Shown: positions 39,162 through 59,134 of the stretch, piece after piece
How the letters are laid out: each line of letters opens with the position of its first letter
Position numbering within the stretch: position 1 is the stretch's first letter
From: Acidimicrobiia bacterium
Lineage (GTDB): Bacteria > Actinomycetota > Acidimicrobiia > Spongiisociales > UBA5794
Direction: 5' to 3'
Length of the DNA: 64,000 bases
NCBI GenBank assembly: GCA_041393965.1
Contig: JAWKJB010000003.1
Span: forward strand, 192,488-256,487
The notes under the pieces: model-generated
Told to the model about the DNA's origin: nothing
Databases searched by the model: none
Seen by the model: only the letters and a program-made list of their open reading frames with translations
Position numbers and translations under genes: made by a program

Positions 39162-42100
39162 GTGAACAGGGTGAGCCGGTTTCCGCTATATGACACGAGT
39201 CAGCACCACGATGCGTGTGGTGTTGGGTTCATCGCGGATCGGTCCGCCTCCGTGTCGCACCGCATCGTCCGTCTCGGCGTCCAATGTCTGCACAACCTCG
39301 ATCACCGGGGTGCGAGAGCAGCAGACGGGACCGGTGATGGTGCCGGGGTCATGACCCGGATTCCGCACCGCATCGTCGAGCGTGACCTCACCGCAGCAGG
39401 AATCGCCCCTCCGCCCCGGGACCGCATCGGCGTCATCGCAGGTTTCTTCCCGCGAGCACGATCGACCTCGGACGCCAAGGCGATCATCGAGGCGGTCCTC
39501 GCGGACAACGGCATCGAGACGCTGCTGTGGCGTCGTGTTCCCATCGACCGCAATGTGCTGTCCGCGACCGCTCGGCGGACGCTTCCCAAGATCCGCCAGG
39601 CCTTCGTTGCTGCATCGGACGACATCGCGGATCCCGACGCCTTCGAGCGGGCGATGTTCCTCGCGCGCAAGCAGATCGAACAACGCGACGACCTTCCCGG
39701 GTTCACGGTTTCGTCGGCGTCGGCGCGTACCGTGGTGTACAAGGGTCTGTTCACCGCCGATCTCATCGAGGACTTCTACTGGGACCTCCGGGATCCCGCG
39801 TACGAATCCGATTTTGTGATCTTTCATCAACGCTATTCGACCAACACCCAACCGGCGTGGGAACTCGCGCAACCCTTCCGGATGCTTGCCCACAATGGGG
39901 AGATCAACACGATCCAGGGCAATCGTTCCTGGATGGCCGCGCGCTCGAATGATCTCGGAACGAGCGTCTGGGGGGATCGGACACCGGATCTTGCGCCGCT
40001 GGTGCGGCCGGGCATCGGGAGCGACTCAGCGAGCCTCGACGAGGCCTTCGAGGTGCTGGTCCGCTCGGGACGGTCCCTTGCCCATGTCAAGGAGATGCTG
40101 ATACCCCAAGCATGGGAGAATGTCCCCGACCTCGATCCGTCGCTCAAGGCCTTTCACGAATACCACGCGTTCCTCACCGAGCCATGGGACGGTCCTGCCG
40201 CGATTGCTGCCTCGGACGGAACAACGCTCATCGCCGGACTCGACCGCAATGGATTGCGGCCTGCGCGTTGGGCCATCTCGCCGGACACGATCGTCGTTGC
40301 CTCCGAGGCAGGCGTTGCGCCCGAGATCGAGGTGGTTGCTCTCGAGACGGGACAGCTCGGTCCGGGGGAGATGCTCGAAGTCGACCTCGCCACGGGCACC
40401 CACACCATGTCGTTGGAACTCAAGCAGCGGCTTGCACGCCTTGCCCCATACGCCGACTGGATCACGATGCAGACCAACTATGTGAACGATCCGTTCGATG
40501 AGCTTCAAGACGAACGATTCGATCCCGACGCGCTCGCGCGGGTGTTCGGCTACACCTCCGAAGAGCGGCGGCTGCTGCTCGAGCAGATGACCGATGGCGT
40601 CGAACCGATCCTGTCGATGGGACACGACACCGGCCTTGCTGCATTGTCGCCGCATCCCCAGCGCATGCCGAGATATTTCCATCAAGCGTTCGCGCAGGTG
40701 ACCAACCCACCGATGGATCCGATCCGTGAGAAGCTCGTGATGTCGCTGCTGACCTATGTGGGGAAGCACGGTTCGCTTCTCGAAGAAACCGAGCAGCAGG
40801 CACACATGATCGAGCTCGCGTCACCGGTCCTTTCCGATGCAGAAGTCGAGGCGCTCCGATCCTCGTCCGATCCGACCTTCGCTTCAGCGTGGATCGACAT
40901 CTTGTACCGACCAGCACCGGGTGCAGCGCCCCTTGTCGACGCGATCGCAGCGGTCTGTGACAGGGCCGAGGAGGCGGTGAGGGCGGGAGCATCGATCATC
41001 ATGCTGTCTGATCGTGCTACCGACGCGGACTTGGCACCGATCCCCATCCTGATGGCGGTCGGTGCGGTCCACCATCGGCTCATCGACACCGGCCTACGGC
41101 TCAACGCATCCATCATTGCCGTGAGCGGGGAGCCACGCGATGCGCACGACCTTGCATGCCTCATCGGCTTTGGCGCCGCAGCCGTGAACCCGTATCTGGC
41201 GATCGAGCAGGTACGAAGCATGGCTGCCGACGGGATGGTCGACCACGGTGTGGTCGAGGCGCAAGAGAACTATCGGTCGAGCCTTGAGAAGGGGCTTCTC
41301 AAGATCATGTCCAAGATGGGAATCTGCACCGTGAAGTCGTACCGGAGCTCCGAGCTGTTCGAGGCAATCGGCCTCGATGACGAGGTCGTCGACCTTTGCT
41401 TCCGCAATGTGCAGCGCAGGGTCGGAGGTGTCGGCATCGAGCGGATCGCCAACGATGTGTTGGTCCGACACGCTCGCTACCGCACGGGTGACACCGAGAT
41501 CGAGGGCTACTACAAACACCGCGGCGGCGGTGTTCCACACGCTGCCGGCCCCATGAATGTCCTTGCCCTCCAGCGCGCCGTGCGCTCCGGTGATGCCGAG
41601 GCCTATGACCGCTATGTGAACCTGATCGAACACGAAACGCCCGCGATGGAGATTCGCGACCTGCTCGAGATCGGGACGCTCGGCGAACCGGTTCCGCTCG
41701 AGTCCGTGGAACCGGCGGAAGAAGTCATGCGGCGTTTCGTCACGGCAGCGATGTCGCTCGGCGCGCTGTCTGCTGAGGTCCACCAGACGCTCGCGGCGGC
41801 CATGAACCGGATCAGGGGCCGATCGAATTCGGGTGAGGGTGGCGAAGACCCCGCGAGGTACGGAACGGAGCTCAACTCGGCGATCAAGCAGGTGGCAAGC
41901 GGCCGGTTCGGTGTCACGCCGGGATACCTTGCATCTGCCGCGGAGTTCCAGATCAAGATGGCGCAGGGCTCGAAACCCGGAGAGGGCGGTCAGCTCCCCG
42001 GGCACAAGGTCACTGCCGAGATCGCTGCGCTGCGTCACACCGAACCAGGCGTGACATTGATCTCACCGCCTCCGCACCACGACATCTACTCCATCGAGGA

Positions 42101-43640
42101 CCTCGCCCAGCTCATCTACGACCTCAAGACCTTCAAGCCCAAGGCGGCGGTGTCGGTGAAGCTGGTGTCGGGTCCCGGCGTCGGAACGATCGCCGTCGGT
42201 GTCGCCAAGGCCCATGCTGACGGCATCACCGTGTCGGGCAACGGAGGGGGAACCGGGGCATCCCCGCTGGTGTCGATCAAGCACGCCGGATCTCCATGGG
42301 AGATCGGTGTCGCCGAGGCTCACCAGGCGCTGGTCGCGAACGGGCTCCGTGGTTCGATTTCTCTCGAAACCGACGGTGGACTGCGCACCGGCCGTGACAT
42401 CGTGATTGCTGCGTTGTTGGGAGCCGACCGATTCGGTTTCGGGACGCTTCCACTGCTTGCGCTCGGGTGCAAGATGGTCCGCCAGTGTCATCTCAACACC
42501 TGTCCCGTCGGGATCACGACCCAGCGCGAGGACCTGCGAGCCAAGTACACCGGTTCGGTGGAACAGGTGATCGAACTGTTCCGACTGCTCGCAGAGGATG
42601 TCAGGCGGCATCTCGCGCGAATCGGTGCGACCGCGATCGATGAGATCGTTGGCCGCGGTGACCTTCTCACCGCTACCGATGGCGGGATCGGTGCAAGCCT
42701 CGCCAGCTTGCTGGTTCGGGCAGACATCGGTGAGGAGCGGCCGTTCCGGCGCACGGCGCGCTCGCCCCTCGGCGACATCCTCGCCGATCTCGGCCGCGAG
42801 GTCGCCGAAACGGAACGGCCCACGGTCGTGTCCTTTCCGATCAAGAACACGGAGCGTTCGGTCGGCACCCGGCTCTCGGGAGATGTCGCTGCATCCAAAG
42901 GTGATGCGGGGCTCCCCGAAGGCACTTTCACGATTCGCCTCTCGGGAACGGCTGGCCAGTCCTTCGGAGCCTTCCTCTCGAATGGCATCGATCTCGACCT
43001 CGACGGGGTCGCAAACGACTATGTCGGGAAGGGCATGGGCGGTGGATCGATCTCGATCCGACCCTATCCGGGTACCCGGTCGGTTCCCCATGTTGCCGGC
43101 AACGCCTGTCTGTATGGGGCGACGGGTGGAGCGCTGTATGCCGCTGGATCCGTCGGTCAGCGCTTCGCGGTGCGCAACTCGGGGGCAACCGCCGTCGTGG
43201 AGGGAGCTTCGGACCATCTCGCCGAATACATGACCGGGGGCACCGTCGCGGTCCTCGGTCCGACTGGGCGCAATGTCGCGGCGGGGATGACCGGCGGCGT
43301 GCTGTATCTGTACGACGCGGACCTCGGGGTCAAGGGCAGGCTCGCGGACAGCGCAACTCGTCTCGAACGGCTCGGAGCCGACGATGGAAGGCGACTGCAC
43401 GCCCTCGTTGCTGAGCACCACATTCGGACCGGATCCGGGGTTGCGAAAGCTCTCCTTGACGATTGGGACGACGCCGTGGATCGGTTCTGGGTACTGCGCC
43501 CCGAGCCCCCGGAGCCGCGGGTGATCGGTGCCACGGATGCGGCGACCGATGTCATCTCATCGCACCTCATCGATCGGGAGTCAACCGACGGCTTCCCGCC
43601 GCCGCTGCCGCTTGCGTCGAGGGAACAATTCGTCCGCTGA
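39162..43640 (+). CDS. gltB: glutamate synthase large (alpha) subunit
   Basis: 1492 aa; N-terminal Ntn amidotransferase Cys (…DACGVGF…), central FMN/3Fe-4S domain, C-terminal GXGXG beta-helix domain; no gltD follows. Confidence 0.95.
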   Translation: MNRVSRFPLYDTSQHHDACGVGFIADRSASVSHRIVRLGVQCLHNLDHRGARAADGTGDGAGVMTRIPHRIVERDLTAAGIAPPPRDRIGVIAGFFPRARSTSDAKAIIEAVLADNGIETLLWRRVPIDRNVLSATARRTLPKIRQAFVAASDDIADPDAFERAMFLARKQIEQRDDLPGFTVSSASARTVVYKGLFTADLIEDFYWDLRDPAYESDFVIFHQRYSTNTQPAWELAQPFRMLAHNGEINTIQGNRSWMAARSNDLGTSVWGDRTPDLAPLVRPGIGSDSASLDEAFEVLVRSGRSLAHVKEMLIPQAWENVPDLDPSLKAFHEYHAFLTEPWDGPAAIAASDGTTLIAGLDRNGLRPARWAISPDTIVVASEAGVAPEIEVVALETGQLGPGEMLEVDLATGTHTMSLELKQRLARLAPYADWITMQTNYVNDPFDELQDERFDPDALARVFGYTSEERRLLLEQMTDGVEPILSMGHDTGLAALSPHPQRMPRYFHQAFAQVTNPPMDPIREKLVMSLLTYVGKHGSLLEETEQQAHMIELASPVLSDAEVEALRSSSDPTFASAWIDILYRPAPGAAPLVDAIAAVCDRAEEAVRAGASIIMLSDRATDADLAPIPILMAVGAVHHRLIDTGLRLNASIIAVSGEPRDAHDLACLIGFGAAAVNPYLAIEQVRSMAADGMVDHGVVEAQENYRSSLEKGLLKIMSKMGICTVKSYRSSELFEAIGLDDEVVDLCFRNVQRRVGGVGIERIANDVLVRHARYRTGDTEIEGYYKHRGGGVPHAAGPMNVLALQRAVRSGDAEAYDRYVNLIEHETPAMEIRDLLEIGTLGEPVPLESVEPAEEVMRRFVTAAMSLGALSAEVHQTLAAAMNRIRGRSNSGEGGEDPARYGTELNSAIKQVASGRFGVTPGYLASAAEFQIKMAQGSKPGEGGQLPGHKVTAEIAALRHTEPGVTLISPPPHHDIYSIEDLAQLIYDLKTFKPKAAVSVKLVSGPGVGTIAVGVAKAHADGITVSGNGGGTGASPLVSIKHAGSPWEIGVAEAHQALVANGLRGSISLETDGGLRTGRDIVIAALLGADRFGFGTLPLLALGCKMVRQCHLNTCPVGITTQREDLRAKYTGSVEQVIELFRLLAEDVRRHLARIGATAIDEIVGRGDLLTATDGGIGASLASLLVRADIGEERPFRRTARSPLGDILADLGREVAETERPTVVSFPIKNTERSVGTRLSGDVAASKGDAGLPEGTFTIRLSGTAGQSFGAFLSNGIDLDLDGVANDYVGKGMGGGSISIRPYPGTRSVPHVAGNACLYGATGGALYAAGSVGQRFAVRNSGATAVVEGASDHLAEYMTGGTVAVLGPTGRNVAAGMTGGVLYLYDADLGVKGRLADSATRLERLGADDGRRLHALVAEHHIRTGSGVAKALLDDWDDAVDRFWVLRPEPPEPRVIGATDAATDVISSHLIDRESTDGFPPPLPLASREQFVR

Positions 43641-43798
43641 ATTCGTTGTATGGGTACCTATTTGCGGCTGGGACGGGCGGCCGGTCTTCCCCCACTCCCA
43701 CTCGCTGTCGCCCGACCAGCCGCAACATGGGCTCCGTGACACCAAGCGGGTGTTCGGAGCGGTTTCGTTGAGGTGCGCCGTGCGGTGGACTAGGATTC

Positions 43799-43816
43799 GC
43801 ACTAGCCGCGTAGTGC
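43799..43816. promoter_or_regulatory. palindrome GCACTA-N6-TAGTGC (extended imperfect arms) 18 bp upstream of the sufB start, followed by RBS GAGGTGA: candidate operator
   Basis: read directly; resembles the ACACT-N5-TGTGA type of SufR operator reported in mycobacteria (from memory, not checked). Confidence 0.3.
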
Positions 43817-43834
43817 AATTCGTGAGGTGATGTC

Positions 43835-45241
43835 ATGACCACGGTGGATATCGATCTCGGTAGTTATCAGCTTGGCTGGTCCGACTCCGAGGACGCCTAT
43901 GTCTACAAGCCCGAGAAGGGACTGACCGAACAGCTCATCCGCGACATGTCGAAGATGAAGGGTGAACCCGAGTGGATGCTCGAGTTCCGCCTCAAGGCGT
44001 ACCAGCGGTTCTTGCGCAAGCCGACCCCGACCTGGGGCGGTGCGGGCTTGCTCGAGACCATCGACTACGACGACATCTACTACTACATCAAGCCGACCGA
44101 GGGCCAAGCCAAGGACTGGGACATGGTTCCCGAGTCGATCAAGGACACCTACGAGAAGCTCGGTATCCCCCAAGCAGAACGCAAGTACCTCGCCGGCGTG
44201 ACCGCACAGTATGAGTCTGAAGTCGTCTACCACCGCAATCGCGAGGATCTCGAGAAACTCGGCGTGCTGTTCTCCGACATGGACACCGCCGTGCGCGAAT
44301 ACCCCGACCTCGTCCGCGAGTACTTCGGCACCGTCATCCCGCCGAACGACAACAAGTTCGCGTCGCTGAACTCGGCTGTCTGGTCCGGCGGTTCGTTCAT
44401 CTATGTGCCCCCCGGCGTGCATGTCGACCAGCCCCTCCAGGCATACTTCCGGATCAACGCCGAATCGATGGGGCAGTTCGAACGCACCCTGATCATCGTG
44501 GACGAAGGCGCCTACTGCCACTATGTCGAGGGCTGTTCGGCGCCAACCTATTCAAATGACTCGCTTCATGCGGCGGTGGTCGAGGTCATCGTCAAGGACG
44601 GTGGCCGCTGTCGTTACACGACCATTCAGAACTGGTCGAACAATGTGCTCAATCTTGTCACCAAGCGGGCGACCGCCTACAAGAACGCCACCATGGAATG
44701 GATCGACGGCAACCTCGGCTCCGGGCTGACCATGAAGTATCCCGCGGTGTGGCTCATGGACGAAGGGGCACACGGGGAGGTGCTGTCGATCGCCTTCGCA
44801 AACACCGGCCAGGTTCTCGATGCCGGGGCCAAGATGGTGCATGCGGCACCACACACCACATCGCTCATCACCTCCAAGTCGATCAGCAAGGGGGGTGGCC
44901 GGTCGGCGTACCGCGGCCTTGTTCGGGTCGAGGAGGGCGCAGAGGACGCCAAGGCCTTTGTCCGGTGCGATGCGTTGCTGCTCGACGAGGACTCCCGATC
45001 AGACACCTACCCGTACATGGAGATCGAGGAGTCCGACATCGACATCGGACACGAGGCGACCGTGTCCAAGGTGGGTGAGGACCAACTGTTCTACCTGATG
45101 AGCCGAGGACTGACCGAGGAACAGGCGACCGCGATGGTGGTGGCGGGGTTCATCGAGCCCATCGTCAAGGAACTCCCGATGGAGTACGCCGTCGAACTGA
45201 ACCGCCTCATCGAACTCCAGATGGAAGGCGCCATCGGCTGA
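43835..45241 (+). CDS. sufB: Fe-S cluster assembly protein SufB
   Basis: 468 aa; conserved SufB N-terminus and C-terminal beta-helix core. Confidence 0.93.
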
Positions 45242-45350: not shown

Positions 45351-46010
45351 ATGCGCATCCGGGTAGCTGTCTGCACCGTACGGTACGAAGGTCGCCTCAA
45401 CGCGTCGCTGCCTGAGGCAACGCGGCTCGTGATGGTCAAAGCGGACGGTTGCGTCGCGATCCATGCCGACGGTGCTGCGTACAAGCCGCTCAATTGGATG
45501 AACGCACCCAACACGATCACCGAGGACGACGATTCGTGGACGGTCGTCAATCCCAAGGGGGAGCGACTCACCATTCGATTCCGAGAGGTCCTCTTCGAGG
45601 AGTCGTTCGACATGGGAGACGACCCCGGGCTCGAAAAGGACGGTGTCGAGCTCGAACTCCAGCGGTTGATCGCGCAACGACCCGAGACGCTCGGTGCTGG
45701 CATGGCACTGGTACGCCGTGAATATCCGACGCCGATCGGCCCGGTCGACTTGCTGTGCCGTGCACAGGACGGTTCGACGGTTGCCGTCGAGATCAAGCGT
45801 CGTGGCGAGATCCAAGCCGTCGAGCAGCTCACCCGGTATCTCGAGTTCCTGAACCGCGACACCCGCATCGCCCCGGTCACGGGCATCCTGGCCGCACAGC
45901 TCATCAAGCCGCAGGCTCGGCTCCTTGCTGTGGATCGCGGCATCGAGTGCGTGGAGATCGACTACGACGCCCTGCGCGGTGCCGAATCAGACATCCTGCG
46001 ACTCTTCTGA
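45351..46010 (+). CDS. nucS: endonuclease NucS (EndoMS, mismatch-specific)
   Basis: 219 aa; N-terminus colinear with mycobacterial NucS (…[22 protein letters not shown]…); RecB-like nuclease C-domain. Confidence 0.88.
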
Positions 46011-46049: not shown

Positions 46050-46457
46050 CTACGAGCCGTTGTTCGTCAGGGTCAGCACGGGGACCGCCGCAAGTTCGTC
46101 GAGAAGCGCCGTTCGAGCAGCCTTCCACGGTTCGTGGATCGCGCATTGCGTGGCACCCCCACACGGTCCACCCCTCAGGACGCAGGTCTCCGTGTCCGTT
46201 TTCCCCTCGACGGCCTCGATGAGATCGAGGACACTGATCGTGACCGGATCGGCGGCGAGCTGATAGCCACCGGTCGGCCCACGCTTGGAATCGACCCACC
46301 CCATGTGGACGAGGGGTGACATGATCTGAGGGAGGTAGGCCTGGGTGGTATCGATCGCTTCGGCAAGGTCCGACGACTGCATCGACGACTTCGACCGGCT
46401 CAGGACCCGCAGTGCATCAACGGCAAGCCCTGTCTTTTTCTGGATGGAGAATTTCAC
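46050..46457 (-). CDS. Rrf2 family transcriptional regulator with three-Cys cluster-ligand motif (IscR/NsrR/RsrR-like)
   Basis: GTG start; N-terminal wHTH (…LAEAIDTTQAYLPQIMSPL…); C-x7-C-x5-C (CVLRGGPCGGATQC). Confidence 0.8.
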   Translation of the reverse strand: MKFSIQKKTGLAVDALRVLSRSKSSMQSSDLAEAIDTTQAYLPQIMSPLVHMGWVDSKRGPTGGYQLAADPVTISVLDLIEAVEGKTDTETCVLRGGPCGGATQCAIHEPWKAARTALLDELAAVPVLTLTNNGS

Positions 46458-46462
46458 AGTTC

Positions 46463-46503
46463 CGAAGTCTAGAACATTTATATCTCAGATGGGTCGACTT
46501 CGG
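46463..46503. promoter_or_regulatory. inverted repeat CCGAAGTC-N25-GACTTCGG in the AT-richer 72-bp region immediately upstream of the Rrf2 gene: candidate autoregulatory operator/promoter
   Basis: read directly; the only clearly lower-GC stretch near here. Confidence 0.3.
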
Positions 46504-46529
46504 GCTGAAGTTTGTCCCCAACCGGGACC

Positions 46530-47459
<930 letters not shown>

Positions 47460-47590
47460 CACCCCCGCCCCTTGGCTGTGAAACCGCGTCCCTTGCCGGG
47501 AACTGGAAGATATCACCTTTCGGTCAGTGTGGCAAGAGAGCTGTACGCTTCATTCGCAGTCTCTTGAGGCACCCGTTCGGGGCGATCGGC

Positions 47591-49081
47591 ATGAAGCAAC
47601 GGCCATTCACAGCACTTGTCTCGATGGTCGCGCTCGTCGTCACCGGTTGCACCGGCATGAACGGCTTCGGGCCCAGTGATGCGGTTATCCCACCGGAACG
47701 GGGAGATCCCACGCTGCGGATCGTCGTCCTCGCTGCAGACGACCTCGGTGAGCTTCCATCGACGGTGATCCTCGACGGAGCGGTGCTCCCGGGATCAGGA
47801 GGCACGAGGGAGATCCCATGGCGGCGAGAGCCGATCGAGGTGTCTGTCGCCGCAAGTGGATTCCACCCCCTCGATCATCGTATCGAGCGATATCCGGAGG
47901 GGGGAGTCGTCGAGTTCCGGCTCGAGCCGGTCGTGCTCACCGGCCGTATCACGACCCACGACGGACGGCCGCTCCCCGGAGCCTTGGTGGAACTGGGCGG
48001 CGACTCGGATCGGACCGACAACGAGGGCCGGTACGCGCTCGAGCGAGCAACCGAAGGCACCATGACCCTGTCACGGCCCGCATGGCAGACACGGACCTAC
48101 GACTGGGATGGGACCATTCTCGAGGTGGACATACCGATGGAGCGGTTCGACATCAGGGCGATCCGAGCATCGGCGGCAGACCTCGGCGACTCGGCGGCCT
48201 GGGATCGGATGCTCGATCTGGCGGATCGCACCGCGATCAACGCCGTCGTCATCGACCTCAAGGACGAGAACGGGGCGGTGGTGTACGGTTCGACGCTGGC
48301 CAGGGCAGCCTCGATCGGGGCGATCAACAGCTACTTCGACGCCACGACCGTGGTCGCGGACGCCAAGGAGCACGACCTGTACACGATCGGTCGGATCGGT
48401 GTGTTCCAGGACGACTTCTACGCAACGGCCGAGCCGGACCACGCCGTGACAACCACAACCGGGGAGCTGTGGCGAGCATCGAACGGCCATGGCTGGGTCG
48501 ACCCTTCGGACCCCGCAGGTTACGAATACTCGGTTGCGCTCGCCGAGGAGGCATGCCTTCTCGGATTCGACGAGATCCAGTTCGACTATGTCTCGTGGCC
48601 GATCGGTGATCTCGACAACGCCGTCTTCGACGGCGAGTACAACCAGGAGGTTCGGGTGGCGTCGATCACGGCCTTCCTTGAGCGTGCCTACACCGTACTG
48701 CATCCACGATGCGCCGTGTCGACGACCGTTCTCGGCATCGTGCTCGAGTCAGGAACCGACGAGGGGGTGGGTCAGGAGCCGTCGGCGATGTCCGGCGCAG
48801 TCGATGTCCTATCGCCAACCCTCTACACGACGAACTACGGCGCCGGGTGGAAGGGGATGGATGATCCGAACGATCACGCCGTCGAGGTTGTCACAACGGC
48901 CCTCGACGGTGGTGCCAGCAAGCTCGTCGGTTTTGCCTATCTGCGTCCGTGGCTCCAGACCTGGGCGATCAGCGAAACGGATCAGCGAGCCGTACAGTCA
49001 GCGGTCAGCAACGATGGCATGGGGTGGCTGTTGTGGAGCAACAACGCGCAATACACGATGGGGAACCTGCCGAGCGGTTAG
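47591..49081 (+). CDS. lipoprotein with putative glycoside-hydrolase-like TIM-barrel domain (DUF4015/GHL-type)
   Basis: signal peptide + lipobox (ALVVTGCTG); central region resembles YngK/GHL-type family; function unknown. Confidence 0.5.
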   Translation: MKQRPFTALVSMVALVVTGCTGMNGFGPSDAVIPPERGDPTLRIVVLAADDLGELPSTVILDGAVLPGSGGTREIPWRREPIEVSVAASGFHPLDHRIERYPEGGVVEFRLEPVVLTGRITTHDGRPLPGALVELGGDSDRTDNEGRYALERATEGTMTLSRPAWQTRTYDWDGTILEVDIPMERFDIRAIRASAADLGDSAAWDRMLDLADRTAINAVVIDLKDENGAVVYGSTLARAASIGAINSYFDATTVVADAKEHDLYTIGRIGVFQDDFYATAEPDHAVTTTTGELWRASNGHGWVDPSDPAGYEYSVALAEEACLLGFDEIQFDYVSWPIGDLDNAVFDGEYNQEVRVASITAFLERAYTVLHPRCAVSTTVLGIVLESGTDEGVGQEPSAMSGAVDVLSPTLYTTNYGAGWKGMDDPNDHAVEVVTTALDGGASKLVGFAYLRPWLQTWAISETDQRAVQSAVSNDGMGWLLWSNNAQYTMGNLPSG

Positions 49082-49746
49082 CGAACCTCACCGAGGAGCT
49101 GATCCAATGTCGACGCTGCCCTCGACTGGTGGCATGGCGCGAGGAGGTGGCAAGGACCAAGCGTGCCGCCTTTGAAGGTGAGGAGTATTGGGGCAAGCCG
49201 GTACCGGGGTTCGGGGATCCGATGGCTCGGATCGTCGTCATCGGCCTCGCACCCGCTGCACACGGGGCCAACCGCACCGGGCGCATGTTCACCGGTGATC
49301 GTTCAGGTGATTGGCTGTTTCGCGCGTTGCACACGGCGGGTCTGGCATCGCAGCCACATTCGGTCTCGACAACCGACGGGCTCACGCTGTCAGATGTCTG
49401 GATCACGGCACCGGTGCGGTGTGCGCCGCCCCAGAACAAGCCGACACCGGCAGAGCGGGATGCGTGCTCGTCGTGGTTCGATGCCGAACTCGGGATGCTC
49501 GCCAACGCCCGAGTGTTTGTCGCGCTCGGTCAGTACGGCTATCACGCCCTGTGGGCCCACCTGGCTCGTGCAGGACAGCCCCTCCCGGTCCCACGGCCGA
49601 AGTTCGCCCACGGTCTCGAGACCGCCATCGGCCCCCTCACGATTCTCACCAGTTTCCATGTCTCCCAGCAGAACACCTTCACGGGAAGGCTGACGGTCGA
49701 GATGCTCGATGCCGTGTTCTTGCGAGCCGTACGGCTCGTGTCGTGA
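49033..49746 (+). CDS. udgB: uracil-DNA glycosylase, family 5 (UdgB-type)
   Basis: motif A with Ala in place of the catalytic Asp (GLAPAAHGANRTGRMFTGDRSGDWL), CxRCPRL upstream, motif B HVSQQN; no in-frame ATG, so GTG 49033 (or 49024) is proposed, overlapping the upstream gene by ~49 nt. Confidence 0.7.
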   Translation: MEQQRAIHDGEPAERLANLTEELIQCRRCPRLVAWREEVARTKRAAFEGEEYWGKPVPGFGDPMARIVVIGLAPAAHGANRTGRMFTGDRSGDWLFRALHTAGLASQPHSVSTTDGLTLSDVWITAPVRCAPPQNKPTPAERDACSSWFDAELGMLANARVFVALGQYGYHALWAHLARAGQPLPVPRPKFAHGLETAIGPLTILTSFHVSQQNTFTGRLTVEMLDAVFLRAVRLVS

Positions 49747-49862
49747 GCGACGACATGCACGCCCGGGTCCTCCATGGGGGCGTGATGGGCAATTCACCTA
49801 TCGTCGTATTGGAAACGCCGAGGATCCAGTAACCTCGGAGCATCCCAGCAAGGACATCTGGC

Positions 49863-51062
49863 GTGACAACACCCGCAACCATCGGAATCGATGACGCCGC
49901 GTGGATGGCGACTCGGCGCTCGGACGCGAGCCAACGGCTCGCGACCACAACCATGCCGTCCGAACGCGAGGAGGTCTGGCGCTACCTCGACCTCGACTTC
50001 GATCCCGACTTCGGCTCGGCGCCGCTCGCGCCCGGCGCTTTCCCTTCCGCTGATCAGTTGATGGACGACTGGGTCGGCTCGGTGATCTCGATCGTCGACG
50101 GGTTCGTTACGACCGACGGTGTGCACACCGTTGTATCCGAGCCGGAGGCGACCGACGACGGTGTCGGATCTGATCTGTTCGCAACAGCGTACGATGCGCT
50201 CGCCCCGGGTGCTGCGCTCGTGGATGCCGGTCATCTCGGGGAGCCGGTCTTCGTCGATATCGCAGCGACCGGCCCCGGAACCACCTTTCCGGGAGTGCAT
50301 ATCCACGCGCCCGCCGGATGCGATGCCTCGGTGGTGATCCGCTACCGGTCCGCTTCCGATGACGCTGCCGTGGTCGTGCCGCGCCTCACCGCCAAGGTCG
50401 GCGACAATGCTCGGCTCGCACTCACGATCATCCAGGACTGGAACTACGCGACGAGGGCGATGGGGCGAGCCGTCGTCGATCTCGGGCAGGATGCGGGGCT
50501 GACCCTGTCGGAGGTCGGCCTCGGTGCACTCCTTGGTCGCTTGCACCTCGATGTCAACTTCATCGGCCGCGGATCGTGGGGTCAGATCCACGGTGCCTAC
50601 TTCGGCGAGGAGAACCAGACCCTCGACTACCGGTACTTCATGAACCACATCGGGACCAACACGCGGTCTGACATGTTCCTCAAAGGTGCCGTGGAGGACG
50701 AGGCGCTGTCGGTGTTCACCGGCATGATCAGGATCGAGACGACCGGCCAGAAGACCGAGGCGTTCCAGACGAACCGGAACCTGATCCTTTCACGCGGTGC
50801 GTCGGCACAGTCCGTTCCCAACCTTGAGATCCTCGCGAACGATGTCAAGTGCGGTCACGGATCGAGCGTCGGTCCCCTCGACGAGGACCAGCGCTACTAC
50901 CTGATGAGCCGAGGGCTGATTCCCGAGGTCGCCGACCGGCTGCAGGTCCGGGGCTTCTTCGAGGAGGCCATCGCCAAGATCCCCCATGCGGATCTCGCAC
51001 CGTGGATCCGCGAGCGGATCAACGCCAAGTATGTCCTTGCCCAGGAAGAAGGCAGGGTATGA
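49863..51062 (+). CDS. sufD: Fe-S cluster assembly protein SufD
   Basis: 399 aa; SufD beta-helix C-terminal region; context. Confidence 0.9.
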   Translation: MTTPATIGIDDAAWMATRRSDASQRLATTTMPSEREEVWRYLDLDFDPDFGSAPLAPGAFPSADQLMDDWVGSVISIVDGFVTTDGVHTVVSEPEATDDGVGSDLFATAYDALAPGAALVDAGHLGEPVFVDIAATGPGTTFPGVHIHAPAGCDASVVIRYRSASDDAAVVVPRLTAKVGDNARLALTIIQDWNYATRAMGRAVVDLGQDAGLTLSEVGLGALLGRLHLDVNFIGRGSWGQIHGAYFGEENQTLDYRYFMNHIGTNTRSDMFLKGAVEDEALSVFTGMIRIETTGQKTEAFQTNRNLILSRGASAQSVPNLEILANDVKCGHGSSVGPLDEDQRYYLMSRGLIPEVADRLQVRGFFEEAIAKIPHADLAPWIRERINAKYVLAQEEGRV

Positions 51063-51394
51063 CGATCCATTCCCTCGGCTCCATCGATGCGCTCCCCGAC
51101 GGAAAAGGGACCCGTTTCGATTTCGGTGATGAACGCATCGCGGTGTTCCGTGTCGGCGGGGCGGTGTATGCCATCGGAGATCGCTGTAGCCATGCGGAGG
51201 CATCGCTGTCTGAGGGCGAGCTGTTCGGGCTCGAGGTCGAGTGTCCGAGGCATGGTGCCGAGTTCGACATCACCACCGGTGCCGTCTGCTCGCTGCCAGC
51301 GACCAAGCCGGTTCCGTCGTACCCAACGGAGGTGCGTGACGGTGAGGTCCTCATCACGATCACAACGAAGGAAGAAGATGTCAAGCGCACTTGA
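51059..51394 (+). CDS. Rieske [2Fe-2S] non-heme iron-sulfur protein
   Basis: ATG overlapping the sufD stop (ATGA); CxH…CxxH (DRCSHAE…CPRHGAEF); upstream ORF extension rejected. Confidence 0.8.
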   Translation: MTIHSLGSIDALPDGKGTRFDFGDERIAVFRVGGAVYAIGDRCSHAEASLSEGELFGLEVECPRHGAEFDITTGAVCSLPATKPVPSYPTEVRDGEVLITITTKEEDVKRT

Positions 51395-52106
51395 GGTCAG
51401 CAATCTGACCGCGTCGATCGGAGATCTCGCGATTCTCAAGGGGGTCGATCTGGAGGTGCCGTTCGGAGAGGTCCACGCGGTGATGGGACCAAACGGTTCC
51501 GGGAAGTCGACCCTCTGCCATGTCCTGATGGGCAAGGACGACTACACGGCGTCCGGCACGGCTCGGGTGGACGGAGTGGACATCATGGGCATGACCGTCG
51601 ATGAACGGGCCCGCGTGGGGCTGTTCGAAGCCTTCCAGTATCCGACCGAGATTCCGGGCGTCACGCTCGATGATCTCGTCGGTGCGATGGCGGCGTCGAA
51701 CCCCGACGACGACGGATTCTGGGCGCGCGCCGATGCGACCGCACAGACCCTGTCGATGGATCGATTCCGGAAGCGGTCGGTGAATGTCGGGCTGTCCGGT
51801 GGCGAGAAGAAGCGTTCGGAGATGTACCTGCTCGGCGTTGCGAACCCCAAGGTGGCGATCCTCGACGAGATCGACTCGGGTCTCGACATCGACGCGGTGC
51901 GCGAGGTCGCAGCGCTGGTCGAGTCCATGCGAAGCGACGAGCGCGCTGTGCTCATCATCACGCACTACAGCAGGATCCTGCGCTACCTATCGGTCGACCG
52001 TGTCCATGTCATGGTGAGCGGCAAGATCGTCAGAAGTGGTGGTCCCGAGGTCGCAGAGGAACTCGAGTCCGGCGGCTACGCCGAATTGCAGGCAGCAGCT
52101 CGGTAG
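51378..52106 (+). CDS. sufC: Fe-S cluster assembly ATPase SufC (copy 1)
   Basis: 242 aa fits ATG at 51378 (the track lists 51381); Walker A GPNGSGKST, signature LSGGEKKR, Walker B ILDEIDSGLD; strong match to mycobacterial SufC C-terminus (ITHYSRILRYL…GGPEVAEELE). Confidence 0.9.
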   Translation: MSSALEVSNLTASIGDLAILKGVDLEVPFGEVHAVMGPNGSGKSTLCHVLMGKDDYTASGTARVDGVDIMGMTVDERARVGLFEAFQYPTEIPGVTLDDLVGAMAASNPDDDGFWARADATAQTLSMDRFRKRSVNVGLSGGEKKRSEMYLLGVANPKVAILDEIDSGLDIDAVREVAALVESMRSDERAVLIITHYSRILRYLSVDRVHVMVSGKIVRSGGPEVAEELESGGYAELQAAAR

Positions 52107-52177
52107 CGCACAGGCAGCCGGCTGCGGTGTGATCCGAGTGAGGTCCGGTGCCTTGCGTTCATAGTACGGTTCGTGCC

Positions 52178-52939
52178 ATGGACGGCTCGATGTCACACCT
52201 CACCAGGCTCGTCGCCCAAGCCGACGCCATTCTCATCCTGAGCGGCGCAGGGATCTCCACGGCAAGTGGCATCCCCGATTTTCGCGGACCAAACGGGATC
52301 TGGAAGGCCGAACGCCCCGTCCCGTTCGACGAGTTCCTCACCAACGAGCAACGCCGGATCGCGTCCTGGGAACAGAAGGTACGAGCCGCCGAGGTCCTCC
52401 GGGACGCACGACCGAATGCTGTTCATGTGGCGTGTGTCGAGCTCGAGGCCTCTGGCAAGCTCGAGATGGTTGCCACACAGAACATCGACGGTCTGCACGC
52501 CGAGGCGGGCACCTCGCCCGGACGGCTCGTCGAGTTGCATGGCACCGGCCGGGAGGCCGGGTGCCTGTCGTGCGGTGAACGCACACCGATCGAGCCGCAT
52601 CTCGAGCGGTTTGTGGCGACGGGAACAGCGCCGACCTGTGCGGCGTGTGGTGGTCTCCTCAAGTCGGCGACCATCAGTTTCGGGCAGGCCCTCGATCCGC
52701 TTGTGCTCGATCGGGCTCATCGGGCGGCGGAGCGCTGCGATCTGGTGGTGGCACTCGGGACCTCGCTCAGCGTGTATCCCGCCGCGGACCTTCCTCTGAC
52801 GGCGGTTCGTCGAGGTATTCCGTACGCAATTGTCAATCGGGGCGGTACCGACCACGACACCTGGACCGGAGTAACGGTGCGCATCGATGGTGATGTCAAC
52901 GAGGTGTTTCCACAAGTGGTCGCGGCCGCCATCGGCTGA
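52178..52939 (+). CDS. cobB: NAD-dependent protein deacylase (Sir2/CobB sirtuin)
   Basis: start MDGSMSH (52178); GAGIST…GIPDFRG, QNIDGLH, zinc-binding Cys pairs (CLSCG…CAAC). Confidence 0.85.
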   Translation: MDGSMSHLTRLVAQADAILILSGAGISTASGIPDFRGPNGIWKAERPVPFDEFLTNEQRRIASWEQKVRAAEVLRDARPNAVHVACVELEASGKLEMVATQNIDGLHAEAGTSPGRLVELHGTGREAGCLSCGERTPIEPHLERFVATGTAPTCAACGGLLKSATISFGQALDPLVLDRAHRAAERCDLVVALGTSLSVYPAADLPLTAVRRGIPYAIVNRGGTDHDTWTGVTVRIDGDVNEVFPQVVAAAIG

Positions 52940-56543: not shown

Positions 56544-57002
56544 TCATGTCGTCACGCCGGCCTGTTCGAGTGCGTTGGCAAGCGTGGTCCAGGCGAGGTC
56601 GGCGCACTTGATCCGCACAGGGAACTTGCGGACTCCCTGGAGCGCTTCGAGGTCGCCGAGGACCGAACCGGGCCGTTCCTCGTCGACGGGATTCTCGCCC
56701 TCCTCGATCGACATCATGGTTCGGAACTTGTGGGCGAGATCGGTGATCTCGCCGGTCGTCTTCCCGACGATCGACTCCATCATCATGGAGCCCGACGCCT
56801 GCGAGATCGAACACCCCTGTCCCTGCATGGCGGCGTCGGTGACGACATCATCCTCGATGACGATGTCGAGGTAGAACTCGTCGCCACACGACGGATTGGT
56901 TCCCTCGGCGTGGATGTGGTCGGCCTCGATACGGCCCCTTCGCCTCGGGTTGCGGTAGTGATCGAGGATCACACCACGGTACAGCTCGTCGAGTTCTGCC
57001 AT
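56544..57002 (-). CDS. sufU: SUF system NifU-family Fe-S cluster assembly scaffold SufU
   Basis: conserved Cys residues (…NPSCGDE…; …GQGCSISQAS…; …KCADLAW…). Confidence 0.85.
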   Translation of the reverse strand: MAELDELYRGVILDHYRNPRRRGRIEADHIHAEGTNPSCGDEFYLDIVIEDDVVTDAAMQGQGCSISQASGSMMMESIVGKTTGEITDLAHKFRTMMSIEEGENPVDEERPGSVLGDLEALQGVRKFPVRIKCADLAWTTLANALEQAGVTT

Positions 57003-57050
57003 TCAGGTCCTGGTCCGCTGGGTTCGAGGATACCGGTGGGGGGTGAGCAC

Positions 57051-58277
57051 TCAGGCGAGCCCGAAGATCCTGCGCGCCTTGTGGAGGGACTCGACGAGCA
57101 CATCGACCTCCTCGAGCGTGTTGTAGAGGTAGAACGAGGCTCTTGCGGTGGCGGGTATGGCAAGGTACTTCATGAGCGGCCGCGCGCAGTGATGACCCGC
57201 CCGCACCGCAACACCGTCCTGGTCGAGGATGGTTGCGATGTCATGCGGATGGATGTCTCCGAGCTCGAAGCTCACGGCGCCGCCGCGCCTCGACACATCC
57301 TTCGGGCCGTAGATCGTCAAGTCGGGCACCTCGGACAGCCGCTCGAGTGCGTACTGGGTCAGGGCGCGTTCGTGCCCAACGATGGTCTCCATGCCGATGG
57401 CTTCGAGGTAATCCACGGCGGCACCGAAGCCGATCGCCTCGGCGATCGGTGGTGTCCCCGCTTCGAATTTGTGGGGGACCGGCGCCCAGGTCGCCGAGTG
57501 CCGCTCGACGGTGTTGATCATTTCCCCGCCACCTTCGGTCGGCTCCATCTCCTCAAGGAGTTCGGCGCGCCCCCAGAGGGCCCCGATCCCGGTCGGGCCG
57601 AGCATCTTGTGTGAGGAGAAGGCAAGGAAGTCGACTTGAAGCTCCGTGACATCCACCGCGGTGTGCGGCACGAGCTGGGCACCGTCGAGGACCGAGATGG
57701 CCCCAACCGAGCGCGCCGCGGCCGACAGGGTCTCGATCGGGCCGAGTGCACCCGTGACATTGGACATGCCGGAAAAGGCGATGACCCGGGTTCGCTCGTC
57801 GATCACGGTGTCGAGCTGGCTCGTGTCGACGCCGTAGTCGTCGTCGAGCTCGAGATAGGCGAGTTCGGCGCCCGTGTAGCGCGCGACGAGCTGCCACGGC
57901 ACGATGTTGGCGTGGTGTTCCATGATCGTCACCACGATGCGGTCCCCGTCGCGAAGGTGGTTCAGACCCCACCCGTAGGCGATGTAGTTGAGTGCGGTCG
58001 TTGTTCCCCTTGTGAAGACCAGGTGCGCCGGGGACGCGCCGATGAAGGAGGCAACCTTCGACCGGGCTGTCTCATACTGCTCGGTCGCCTCTGCCGCGAG
58101 CGTGTGGGCGCCACGATGCACATTGGCATTCGAGGTCTCGTAGTAGGTGTCCATGGCGTCGAGCACCGACCGTGGCTTCTGCGTGGTGGCTGCCGAGTCG
58201 AGGTAGACGAGCGGCTTTCCGTTGACCTCGCGTCCGAGAATCGGGAAGTCCGACCGGAGCGCCCGCAGGTCGCTCAC
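57051..58277 (-). CDS. sufS: cysteine desulfurase SufS (class V aminotransferase, group II)
   Basis: 408 aa; PLP-Lys region (SSHKMLGPTGIG), active-site Cys loop (…RAGHHCARPL…). Confidence 0.9.
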   Translation of the reverse strand: MSDLRALRSDFPILGREVNGKPLVYLDSAATTQKPRSVLDAMDTYYETSNANVHRGAHTLAAEATEQYETARSKVASFIGASPAHLVFTRGTTTALNYIAYGWGLNHLRDGDRIVVTIMEHHANIVPWQLVARYTGAELAYLELDDDYGVDTSQLDTVIDERTRVIAFSGMSNVTGALGPIETLSAAARSVGAISVLDGAQLVPHTAVDVTELQVDFLAFSSHKMLGPTGIGALWGRAELLEEMEPTEGGGEMINTVERHSATWAPVPHKFEAGTPPIAEAIGFGAAVDYLEAIGMETIVGHERALTQYALERLSEVPDLTIYGPKDVSRRGGAVSFELGDIHPHDIATILDQDGVAVRAGHHCARPLMKYLAIPATARASFYLYNTLEEVDVLVESLHKARRIFGLA

Positions 58278-59026
58278 CCGACGCCGACCTCCGGCCGGAA
58301 CGCCTCGTACCCTGCTTCTTCGATGGCGTCCGCGAGCTCGGCAGTGCCGGATTCGACGATCGTACCGTCCACGAAGACATGGACGAAGTCGGGCGTGATG
58401 TAGTCGAGCATCCGCTGGTAGTGGGTAATGATGAGGAAACCCCGTTGCTCGTTCTGGAGCCTCGTGACGCCTTCAGCCACGATCTTGAGCGCATCGATGT
58501 CGAGTCCGCTGTCGGTCTCGTCCAACACCGCGAATTCGGGTTCGAGGACCGCCATCTGGAGGATCTCGTTGCGTTTGCGTTCGCCGCCGGAGAAACCCTC
58601 ATTGAGGTAGCGGTCGGCGAACGATGGATCCATGTCGAGGTCCCGCATGGCGTCCATCACCTTGAGGCGCAGCTCGAGGACCGTGAGATCGGTCCCCGTC
58701 TTGTTCGACAGTGCGGTGCGGAGGAAGTTCACGACGCTGACGCCGGGGATCTCCTCGGGGTACTGGAAGCCGAGGAACATTCCGACCTTCCCGCGCTTGT
58801 CAGGAGACCACTCGGTGATGTCCTCGCCCTTGAAGCGAACGGAACCAGAGACCTCGTAGGCGGGATGGCCGAGGAGGATGTTGGCAAGGGTCGACTTGCC
58901 GGATCCGTTGGGACCCATGATGGCATGCGTCTCGCCCGCGTTGATCGTCACATCGACCCCTTTGAGAATCGGGGTGCCGTCGACGGAGGCGTGCAGGTTG
59001 CTGACCTCAAGGAGGGGCGTTGGCAT
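58274..59026 (-). CDS. sufC: Fe-S cluster assembly ATPase SufC (copy 2)
   Basis: start MPTPLLEV… (59026; the ORF extends to 59080); Walker A GPNGSGKST, signature FSGGERKR, Walker B VLDETDSGLD; only ~45% identical to copy 1. Confidence 0.88.
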   Translation of the reverse strand: MPTPLLEVSNLHASVDGTPILKGVDVTINAGETHAIMGPNGSGKSTLANILLGHPAYEVSGSVRFKGEDITEWSPDKRGKVGMFLGFQYPEEIPGVSVVNFLRTALSNKTGTDLTVLELRLKVMDAMRDLDMDPSFADRYLNEGFSGGERKRNEILQMAVLEPEFAVLDETDSGLDIDALKIVAEGVTRLQNEQRGFLIITHYQRMLDYITPDFVHVFVDGTIVESGTAELADAIEEAGYEAFRPEVGVG

Positions 59027-59134
59027 CGTCGTCATGGGGCGAGGATACCCCGTCAGATGGCCCAAGGAAGCGGTTTCCAATATGCTGGTAGGTGAAACAC
59101 GGTTGGGTGGGCAGGAGGTCCGCCGTGAGCGTCG

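Follow-up and report, generated by a model that had tools for sequence, protein, structure and literature searches.

We examined a stretch of 64,000 nucleotides (nt) from an Acidimicrobiia bacterium, referred to as the window, with a focus on a palindrome located upstream of sufB, a gene of iron-sulfur (Fe-S) cluster biogenesis. The GC content of the window is 64%, and its SufB is 82-86% identical to SufB of several metagenome-assembled genomes (MAGs) named 'Acidimicrobiia bacterium', which supports an Acidimicrobiia origin. Table 1 lists the genes and the candidate regulatory sites of the region. The usual actinobacterial operon, sufR-sufB-sufD-(Rieske)-sufC-sufS-sufU, was found to be split into sufB, sufD-Rieske-sufC, and sufC-sufS-sufU. 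Between sufB and sufD lies an inserted segment with nucS, the rrf2 gene, the sigma factor gene, the DUF4015 gene, and UDG. The sufC gene is present in two copies, one of which heads the separate sufC-sufS-sufU unit on the opposite strand. The sufD-Rieske-sufC order was also observed in three of the loci fetched for comparison, which are cited here by L numbers (L081, L082, and L084). An earlier interpretation made from the letters alone, hereafter the sequence-only reading, had stated that the window carries no sufR. Pfam scans of about 50 open reading frames (ORFs) and tblastn with actinobacterial SufR agreed with it, as no ArsR-type/COG2345 sufR was found in the window. The sufB gene directly follows gltB without an adjacent gltD; in L009, a gltD-like gene follows gltB.

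Table 1. Genes and candidate regulatory sites of the suf region in the window
Feature	Position	Strand	Evidence or remark
gltB	39162-43640	+	glutamate synthase large subunit
possible -10 box TAGGAT (TAnnnT)	43791-43796	+	predicted from sequence; overlaps the left edge of the operator; TTGAGG 17 nt upstream
candidate operator site 1, GATTCGCACTAGCCGCGTAGTGCAATTC	43794-43821	.	upstream of sufB, holds palindrome 43799-43816; matrix 15.0 bits
sufB, 468 aa	43835-45241	+	Pfam SUFBD_core 1.8e-87, SufBD_N
nucS	45351-46010	+	
Rrf2-family regulator, 135 aa, C92 C99 C105 H108	46050-46457	-	Pfam Rrf2 5.7e-29
SigB-like group-2 sigma factor	46530-47516	-	Pfam sigma-70 r1.2, r2, r3, r4; best NCBIfam match SigB, below cutoff
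DUF4015 gene	47564-49081	+	
UDG	48949-49746	+	
candidate operator site 2, CAATTCACCTATCGTCGTATTGGAAACG	49790-49817	.	45 nt upstream of sufD GTG; matrix 14.6 bits
sufD, 399 aa	49863-51062	+	Pfam SUFBD_core 2.6e-62
Rieske [2Fe-2S] protein gene, between sufD and sufC	51059-51394, start approximate	+	Pfam Rieske 8.7e-19 on ORF 50849-51394
sufC-type ABC ATPase, second copy	51378-52106, start approximate	+	Pfam ABC_tran; orthologues 242-244 aa in L081, L082, L084
Sir2	52148-52939	+	
sufC (58274-59036), sufS (57051-58277), sufU (56544-57002) operon	56544-59036	-	Pfam ABC_tran, Aminotran_5 1.3e-145, NifU_N
candidate operator site 3, plus strand GGTTTCCAATATGCTGGTAGGTGAAACA	59072-59099	.	35 nt upstream of minus-strand sufC ATG; matrix 14.2 bits

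The sequence-only reading had described a GCACTA-N6-TAGTGC palindrome directly upstream of sufB and proposed it as a candidate suf operator. The palindrome was found as described, with the arm GCACTA at 43799-43804 and the arm TAGTGC at 43811-43816. The arms are perfect and separated by a 6-nt spacer, and arms extended to 11 nt are 82% complementary. On the plus strand, the palindrome forms the centre of the 28-bp site 1, which ends 13 nt before the sufB ATG and is adjoined by a GAGGTG Shine-Dalgarno sequence. Taken alone, a bare 6+6 palindrome is at chance level in this DNA. The window contains 301 perfect 6+6 inverted repeats with spacers of 3-9 nt, against 209 in Markov simulations, which corresponds to about 0.9 per 194-nt intergenic region. 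Additionally, GCACTA-N6-TAGTGC with up to two mismatches had one match in the window and at least one match in 37 of 100 shuffles. No further exact or near-exact copies were detected in the window; extra sites emerged only with a matrix built from orthologous sites.

For the comparative analysis, 80 sufB loci were taken from a one-genome-per-species collection. A 28-bp motif was found upstream of sufB in about 45 of these loci, all Acidimicrobiia-like (e.g., CAATTCAACTATCGGGATAGTGGAAATT in L006 and AGTTGTTACTATCTGGATAGGGGAAATT in L027), and the palindrome of the window aligns in register with it. Conservation upstream of sufB in related genomes, which the sequence-only reading had named as a check, was thereby observed, and the orthologous sites are kept in the close relatives L081, L082, and L084. 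Among the same 80 loci, the motif was not found in those of Chloroflexota, Thermomicrobia, Planctomycetota, and other actinobacteria. Genomes without the motif also include L001, L007, L047, L062, and Ilumatobacter. The consensus is aATT-N3-ACTA-N6-TAGk-N3-AAtt, with an invariant CTA-N6-TAG and A/T tracts about 22 bp apart. A weight matrix of 28 bp was derived from 42 sufB-upstream sites of other genomes, excluding the site of the window, and its information is concentrated in T3 T4, A8 C9 T10 A11 T12, T18 A19 G20, and A25 A26 T27.

The window was then scanned with this matrix. Three matches of at least 8 bits were obtained, scoring 15.0, 14.6, and 14.2 bits, and all of them are intergenic and upstream of suf units, whereas 0.005 matches of at least 14 bits are expected per 64 kb. 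Besides the sufB site, they lie upstream of sufD (49790-49817) and of sufC-sufS-sufU (59072-59099), so the extra copies that the sequence-only reading had predicted before other suf genes were recovered. In about 1 Mb of GC-rich locus DNA, matches of at least 13 bits occurred only upstream of sufB, sufD, or sufC-sufS. Sites upstream of sufD were also present in L081, L082, L005, L025, and L048, and homologues of site 3 upstream of sufC-sufS were present in L023, L033, and 29 metagenome loci. With this conservation and the two further suf-linked sites found by a matrix from other genomes, the proposal of a suf operator was strengthened. Directly 3' of the sufD site, a 6-bp GC-rich stem (CCGAGG...CCTCGG) was noted at 49817-49840; its sequence is not conserved in L081 and L082.

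When metagenome contigs were independently scanned for the exact pattern TTNNNACTAYNNNNRTAGKRGAAAT, 120 loci were obtained. The match was within 250 nt upstream of sufB in 43 loci, upstream of sufC-sufS(-sufU) in 29, upstream of sufD in two, in the divergent intergenic region of iscA and mrp/apbC in three, and upstream of an Nfu-type gene in two. The remaining matches comprised 28 loci on AT-rich contigs without a suf neighbour, attributed to chance, and 13 other loci on GC-rich contigs. As a result, 79 of the 92 matches on contigs with at least 50% GC adjoin sufB, sufC-sufS, sufD, iscA/mrp, or nfu, and the motif therefore appears to mark a regulon of Fe-S biogenesis. Six of the 13 other GC-rich matches (L113, L114, L118, L123, L140, and L154) are inside the nrdR coding sequence of non-Acidimicrobiia, where the peptide is ...RE(I/L)(S/P)TT(D/E)IGEM(L/V)M...; they were rejected as false positives and represent a recurrent pitfall for motif scans. 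A strong copy of the motif was also observed in L095 (1491-1577), where 85 bp separate a DtxR/IdeR-family gene from the divergent gene of an iron-type ABC substrate-binding protein; this hints that the regulon may extend to iron uptake in some lineages.

Two explanations that dispense with a DNA-binding protein were weighed against these data. A functionless chance inverted repeat would be expected from the frequency of generic 6+6 palindromes, about one per intergenic region here. However, both the position and the sequence are conserved across a bacterial class, and a matrix from other genomes recovered the sufB site with two suf-linked sites against the 0.005 expected; at the level of sequence comparison, this reading is refuted, and we give it practically no weight. 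An RNA hairpin in the sufB 5' leader, acting on stability or translation, or a terminator of gltB, was considered very improbable as well. A 6-bp stem with a 6-nt loop does form in the minimum-free-energy fold, 13 nt from the start codon, but the fold energy is ordinary (z = -0.42), with 64 of 200 shuffles reaching an equal or better fold, and the scan detected neither a T-run nor a terminator. Relative to the gene that follows, the motif is found in either orientation, and an Rfam scan of 43500-44000 gave no family, only a spurious sub-threshold match to HOTAIR. Over 126 distinct sites, C9/T10/A11 and T18/A19/G20 are 97-100% invariant, the position pair 8/21 is an A.G mismatch in 60%, and no compensatory changes were seen. 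Because of this invariant core, the mismatch at 8/21, and the lack of compensatory changes, the motif is better explained by a protein reading DNA than by an RNA stem.

The binder proposed by the sequence-only reading was the neighbouring three-cysteine Rrf2 regulator. The rrf2 gene is indeed near sufB, although it is encoded on the minus strand, as the second gene of an apparent sigma-rrf2 operon. If this protein were an IscR-like Fe-S sensor, it would bind all three sites and control the suf units, and several observations speak for it. Within the fragmented suf cluster, the gene is located between sufB and sufD, an arrangement kept in L081-L086, and the residues C92, C99, C105, and H108 of its product, invariant in the family, align with the Cys3-His ligands of Escherichia coli IscR. 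The regulon content (suf with iscA/erpA, nfu, and mrp) resembles the regulons of IscR, a [2Fe-2S] protein, in Proteobacteria, in which one type of palindromic operator likewise serves dispersed Fe-S units (suf, A-type carrier, Nfu, and Mrp/ApbC-like). Binding sites of Rrf2 proteins are palindromic too, with a length of about 25-28 bp and ends rich in A/T. The IscR type-1 site, ATASYYGACTRWWWYAGTCRRSTAT, is 25 bp long with half-site centres 9 bp apart, whereas the motif is 28 bp long with centres 10 bp apart. In an informal comparison with the IscR consensus, some resemblance in ACT/AGT letters and A/T ends stood beside a difference of 1 bp in half-site spacing.

The Rrf2 protein is nevertheless an unlikely binder, disfavoured by co-occurrence, by the contexts of its homologues, and by its own motif-free operon. 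Within the local context of 8 kb around sufB, an Rrf2 homologue was found in none of the 80 species genomes, while about 45 carry the motif. Six genomes (L001, L002, L003, L005, L012, and L013) keep sufB-(nucS)-sigma without an Rrf2 gene within 8 kb, and strong sites are retained in four of them (L002, L003, L005, and L012); L001 has no site, and the upstream region of L013 falls outside the fetched locus. The motif is class-wide, in contrast to a narrow Rrf2 clade of about 40 clusters at 65% identity or more. Homologues with 73-81% identity share the sigma-rrf2 operon, but the neighbours of the 65% homologue are a Cu-oxidase/nirK-like and a FixO-like gene, the 52% homologue is in a narGHI operon, and the 47% homologue is next to nirS. 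No motif was found in the nirK-like, narGHI, and nirS loci of these homologues, even though the recognition helix of the nirS-linked protein is near-identical to that of the window (TTHQYLPQIMSPLV vs TTQAYLPQIMSPLV). Upstream of the sigma-rrf2 operon, no match of at least 8 bits was detected near 46458-47700 in the window, and none of at least 10 bits in L081-L086. Among NCBIfam models, only the superfamily TIGR00738 passed; no IscR, SUF regulator, or NsrR equivalog reached its cutoff, with 54.9 bits for IscR (cutoff 207.55) and 63.4 for suf_reg_Xantho (cutoff 110.65).

The Rrf2 protein of the window is probably a regulator of something else, with an NsrR-like or redox role, because its relatives are located beside nirK-like, nirS, and narGHI genes. 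This context is shared with the NsrR-type Rrf2 proteins, which sense NO; however, the NsrR score was far under the cutoff, and the copy in the window is paired with a SigB-like sigma factor and not with denitrification genes. The sigma factor itself is context and not a member of the regulon. Upstream of its gene (about 47517-47570 in the window), a block of about 45 nt, GAAGCGTACAnCTCTCTTGCcACACTg...GTGATAnCT, is near-invariant in the window and L081-L084. It contains no motif and may serve as a promoter or be targeted by another regulator.

The known operators of SufR, a [4Fe-4S] protein of COG2345 in Actinobacteria and Cyanobacteria, offered a closer comparison. According to a cryo-EM study, SufR sites are composed of a core palindrome flanked by A/T tracts that are read by an AT-hook, and the core is CAAC-N6-GTTG in Streptomyces and Synechocystis (bioRxiv 10.64898/2025.12.26.696629). 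In the same study, the Mycobacterium tuberculosis site is ACACT-N5-TGTGA, written by its authors as CACT-N6-TGTG, within the 29-bp GGAATTTTGTCACACTGATGTTTGTGAAAATCC; the ACACT/TGTGA site ascribed to mycobacteria in the sequence-only reading was correct. For M. tuberculosis SufR, low core specificity was reported, the core not being read base-specifically ('shape, not sequence'; bioRxiv 10.64898/2025.12.26.696629). In our collection, the sufR operators of L076, L078, and L080 (AAATAcgCAACactggtGTTGtgAAAAA) are 28 bp long, with a 4-N6-4 core between A/T tracts. The motif shares this layout. Its 4-bp core is inverted around a 6-bp spacer and bordered on each side by an A/T tract of about 4-5 bp, its length of 28 bp compares with 28-29 bp, and it is positioned directly upstream of suf genes. 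In the alignment, the consensus is AgTTgTT-ACTA-N6-TAGg-gG-AAATT, the site of the window is GATTCGC-ACTA-GCCGCG-TAGT-GC-AATTC, and that of L080 is AAATACG-CAAC-ACTGGT-GTTG-TG-AAAAA.

The two types of site also differ in several respects. The core of the motif is ACTA/TAGk and not CAAC/GTTG, and the CACTA/TAGTG of the window gives CACT-N8-AGTG, out of register with the CACT-N6-TGTG of M. tuberculosis. The core is strongly conserved, in contrast to the low core specificity reported there. A cognate sufR, which in SufR systems is the first gene of the operon or divergent from it and thus autoregulated, was detected neither in the window nor within 8 kb of sufB in the Acidimicrobiia loci, and the motif is present in at least three copies on separate suf fragments, in addition to iscA/mrp and nfu. 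By its layout, the motif would work like a SufR operator, and it may belong to that class.

Taking the comparative data together, we consider that the palindrome is probably the core of a 28-bp operator that marks SUF promoters throughout the class Acidimicrobiia, with an unlinked protein of the SufR family as the favoured candidate for the binder. Our estimates for the binder are kept apart from this overall judgement. A SufR-family protein encoded elsewhere, with a changed core preference, is given slightly less than an even chance, on the analogy of the site layout (4-N6-4, A/T tracts, 28 bp) with that of SufR operators; Rrf2 receives a small share, and the remainder goes to other families. 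COG2345 proteins are encoded by Acidimicrobiia, and in most genomes the motif sites have no adjacent gene for a binder.

Several observations weigh against this explanation. The one clear Acidimicrobiia SufR (BAN02115-like, Ilumatobacter) is divergent from a second suf operon, fdx-sufB-sufC-sufD-sufT. In the intergenic region between them, two of the three lineages examined show a CAAC-N6-CTTG-like site, which is clear in L215 and shifted in L218 and is a further difference from the motif; the ACTA motif was absent from these SufR loci (L212-L218) in all three. The BAN04159-like protein, a second COG2345 paralogue whose gene is flanked by mrp and iscA in Ilumatobacter, likewise has no ACTA motif at its locus (L219-L220). 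The roughly 2 Mb of fetched DNA contained no COG2345 gene in the neighbourhood of a motif site, and the searches for regulators in the fetched loci tied no protein to the motif. The three sites of the window score 14-15 bits, against 25-45 bits in most other lineages, on which the matrix was mainly trained. A strict sigma-70 scan called no promoter at any of the three sites, so promoter occlusion is something that we infer; a terminator scan at the same sites was also empty.

The second SUF operon, with the order (ferredoxin)-sufB-sufC-sufD-DUF59 and a divergent SufR, was observed in L212 (1606-5823), L215 (2086-5849), and L218 (2312-5744). Judged by these gene arrangements, the class appears to harbour two differently regulated SUF systems. 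In Ilumatobacter coccineus (AP012057.1; L219, 5962-6000) and in L220, 39 bp separate the BAN04159-like gene from the divergent mrp/apbC, and they hold ATTTTACCGGCGAATGCCGTGTAATC, an element found in no other fetched locus. It looks like a CGGC-GAAT-GCCG palindrome framed by two -10 boxes of leaderless divergent genes, and its A/T parts may be just such boxes.

In all fetched loci, tblastn searches with Rrf2, with SufR, and with the second COG2345 paralogue located no regulator near the motif sites, with the exception of L133. The Rrf2 of L133 was rejected; it is Cys-less and CymR-like, and it is 480 nt from the site, with another ORF between them. ORF clustering within 5 kb of the sites in 128 loci revealed no recurrent regulator; biogenesis and housekeeping genes recurred, together with an orphan four-cysteine protein. 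This protein of about 115 aa is encoded directly 3' of sufB in many Acidimicrobiia (32 loci, among them L033, 9477-9812, and also L020-L068, L096, L102, and L117). It has the pattern C-x16-C-x12-C-x3-C with conserved cysteines, a basic C-terminal tail (..RKWWRRKR), and no Pfam family. Neither the window nor its closest relatives encode it. A function as an Fe-S accessory protein or in DNA binding is conceivable. A literature search for Acidimicrobiia together with SufR returned no paper.

A binder from another family, such as another Rrf2 paralogue, a DtxR/IdeR-type regulator, or an uncharacterised Fe-S protein encoded elsewhere, was regarded as a minority possibility, with roughly one chance in a handful. 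It fits with the failure of any candidate regulator gene to co-localise with the motif in about 200 loci, and the conserved CTA/TAG implies base-specific reading through the major groove, unlike that of M. tuberculosis SufR (bioRxiv 10.64898/2025.12.26.696629). Nevertheless, the 4-N6-4 layout and the A/T tracts match SufR sites closely. For DtxR/IdeR in particular, the L095 site next to a DtxR-family gene is favourable, but it is one of 120 loci, and the boxes of DtxR/IdeR, palindromes of 19 bp, differ from the motif in sequence.

A resemblance to another known operator was also considered. The CIRCE element bound by HrcA is TTAGCACTC-N9-GAGTGCTAA, and the GCACTA/TAGTGC arms of the window resemble its GCACTC/GAGTGC arms. 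However, the spacer in the window is 6 nt instead of 9, the genes are suf and not chaperone genes, and the G/C bases behind the resemblance are not conserved in the orthologous motif sites.

In this genome, the ancestral actinobacterial suf operon is broken into three units, each with its own copy of the candidate operator 13-45 nt before the start codon. Under the preferred explanation, a dimeric winged-helix repressor sensing Fe-S status would sit on the region of the -10 box and the transcription start, and it would be released when the cluster supply falls, so that the scattered suf units would be induced together. Occlusion of the -10 box and the transcription start by a repressor is the simplest reading of the position of the sites. 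In relatives, a TACAAT or an extended -10 box (TGnTACTAT) coincides with the left edge or part of the motif.

Detailed knowledge of how the essential process of Fe-S biogenesis is controlled is limited to a few lineages, namely Proteobacteria, with IscR, and Cyanobacteria, Mycobacterium, and Streptomyces, with SufR. We tentatively propose, at roughly one chance in three, a class-specific operator over sufB, sufD-Rieske-sufC, sufC-sufS-sufU, iscA, mrp, and nfu, with a binder that would be neither an operon-linked SufR nor the local Rrf2. This binder may be an unlinked COG2345 paralogue with base-specific recognition of the core or a family new to Fe-S homeostasis, and it would act beside a second suf operon with a classical SufR. 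If a SufR paralogue is the binder, the strong conservation of CTA/TAG in the core would stand in contrast to the recent 'shape, not sequence' proposal for M. tuberculosis SufR. The case also cautions that gene adjacency alone is a poor ground for naming a regulator.

The motif provides an entire class, largely uncultured and abundant in soils, fresh waters, and the sea, with a clean cis-regulatory signature from which Fe-S regulons of MAGs can be annotated. It opens a testable search for the missing regulator, and it illustrates how an operon can break up while coordinated control is kept through one operator copy per fragment.

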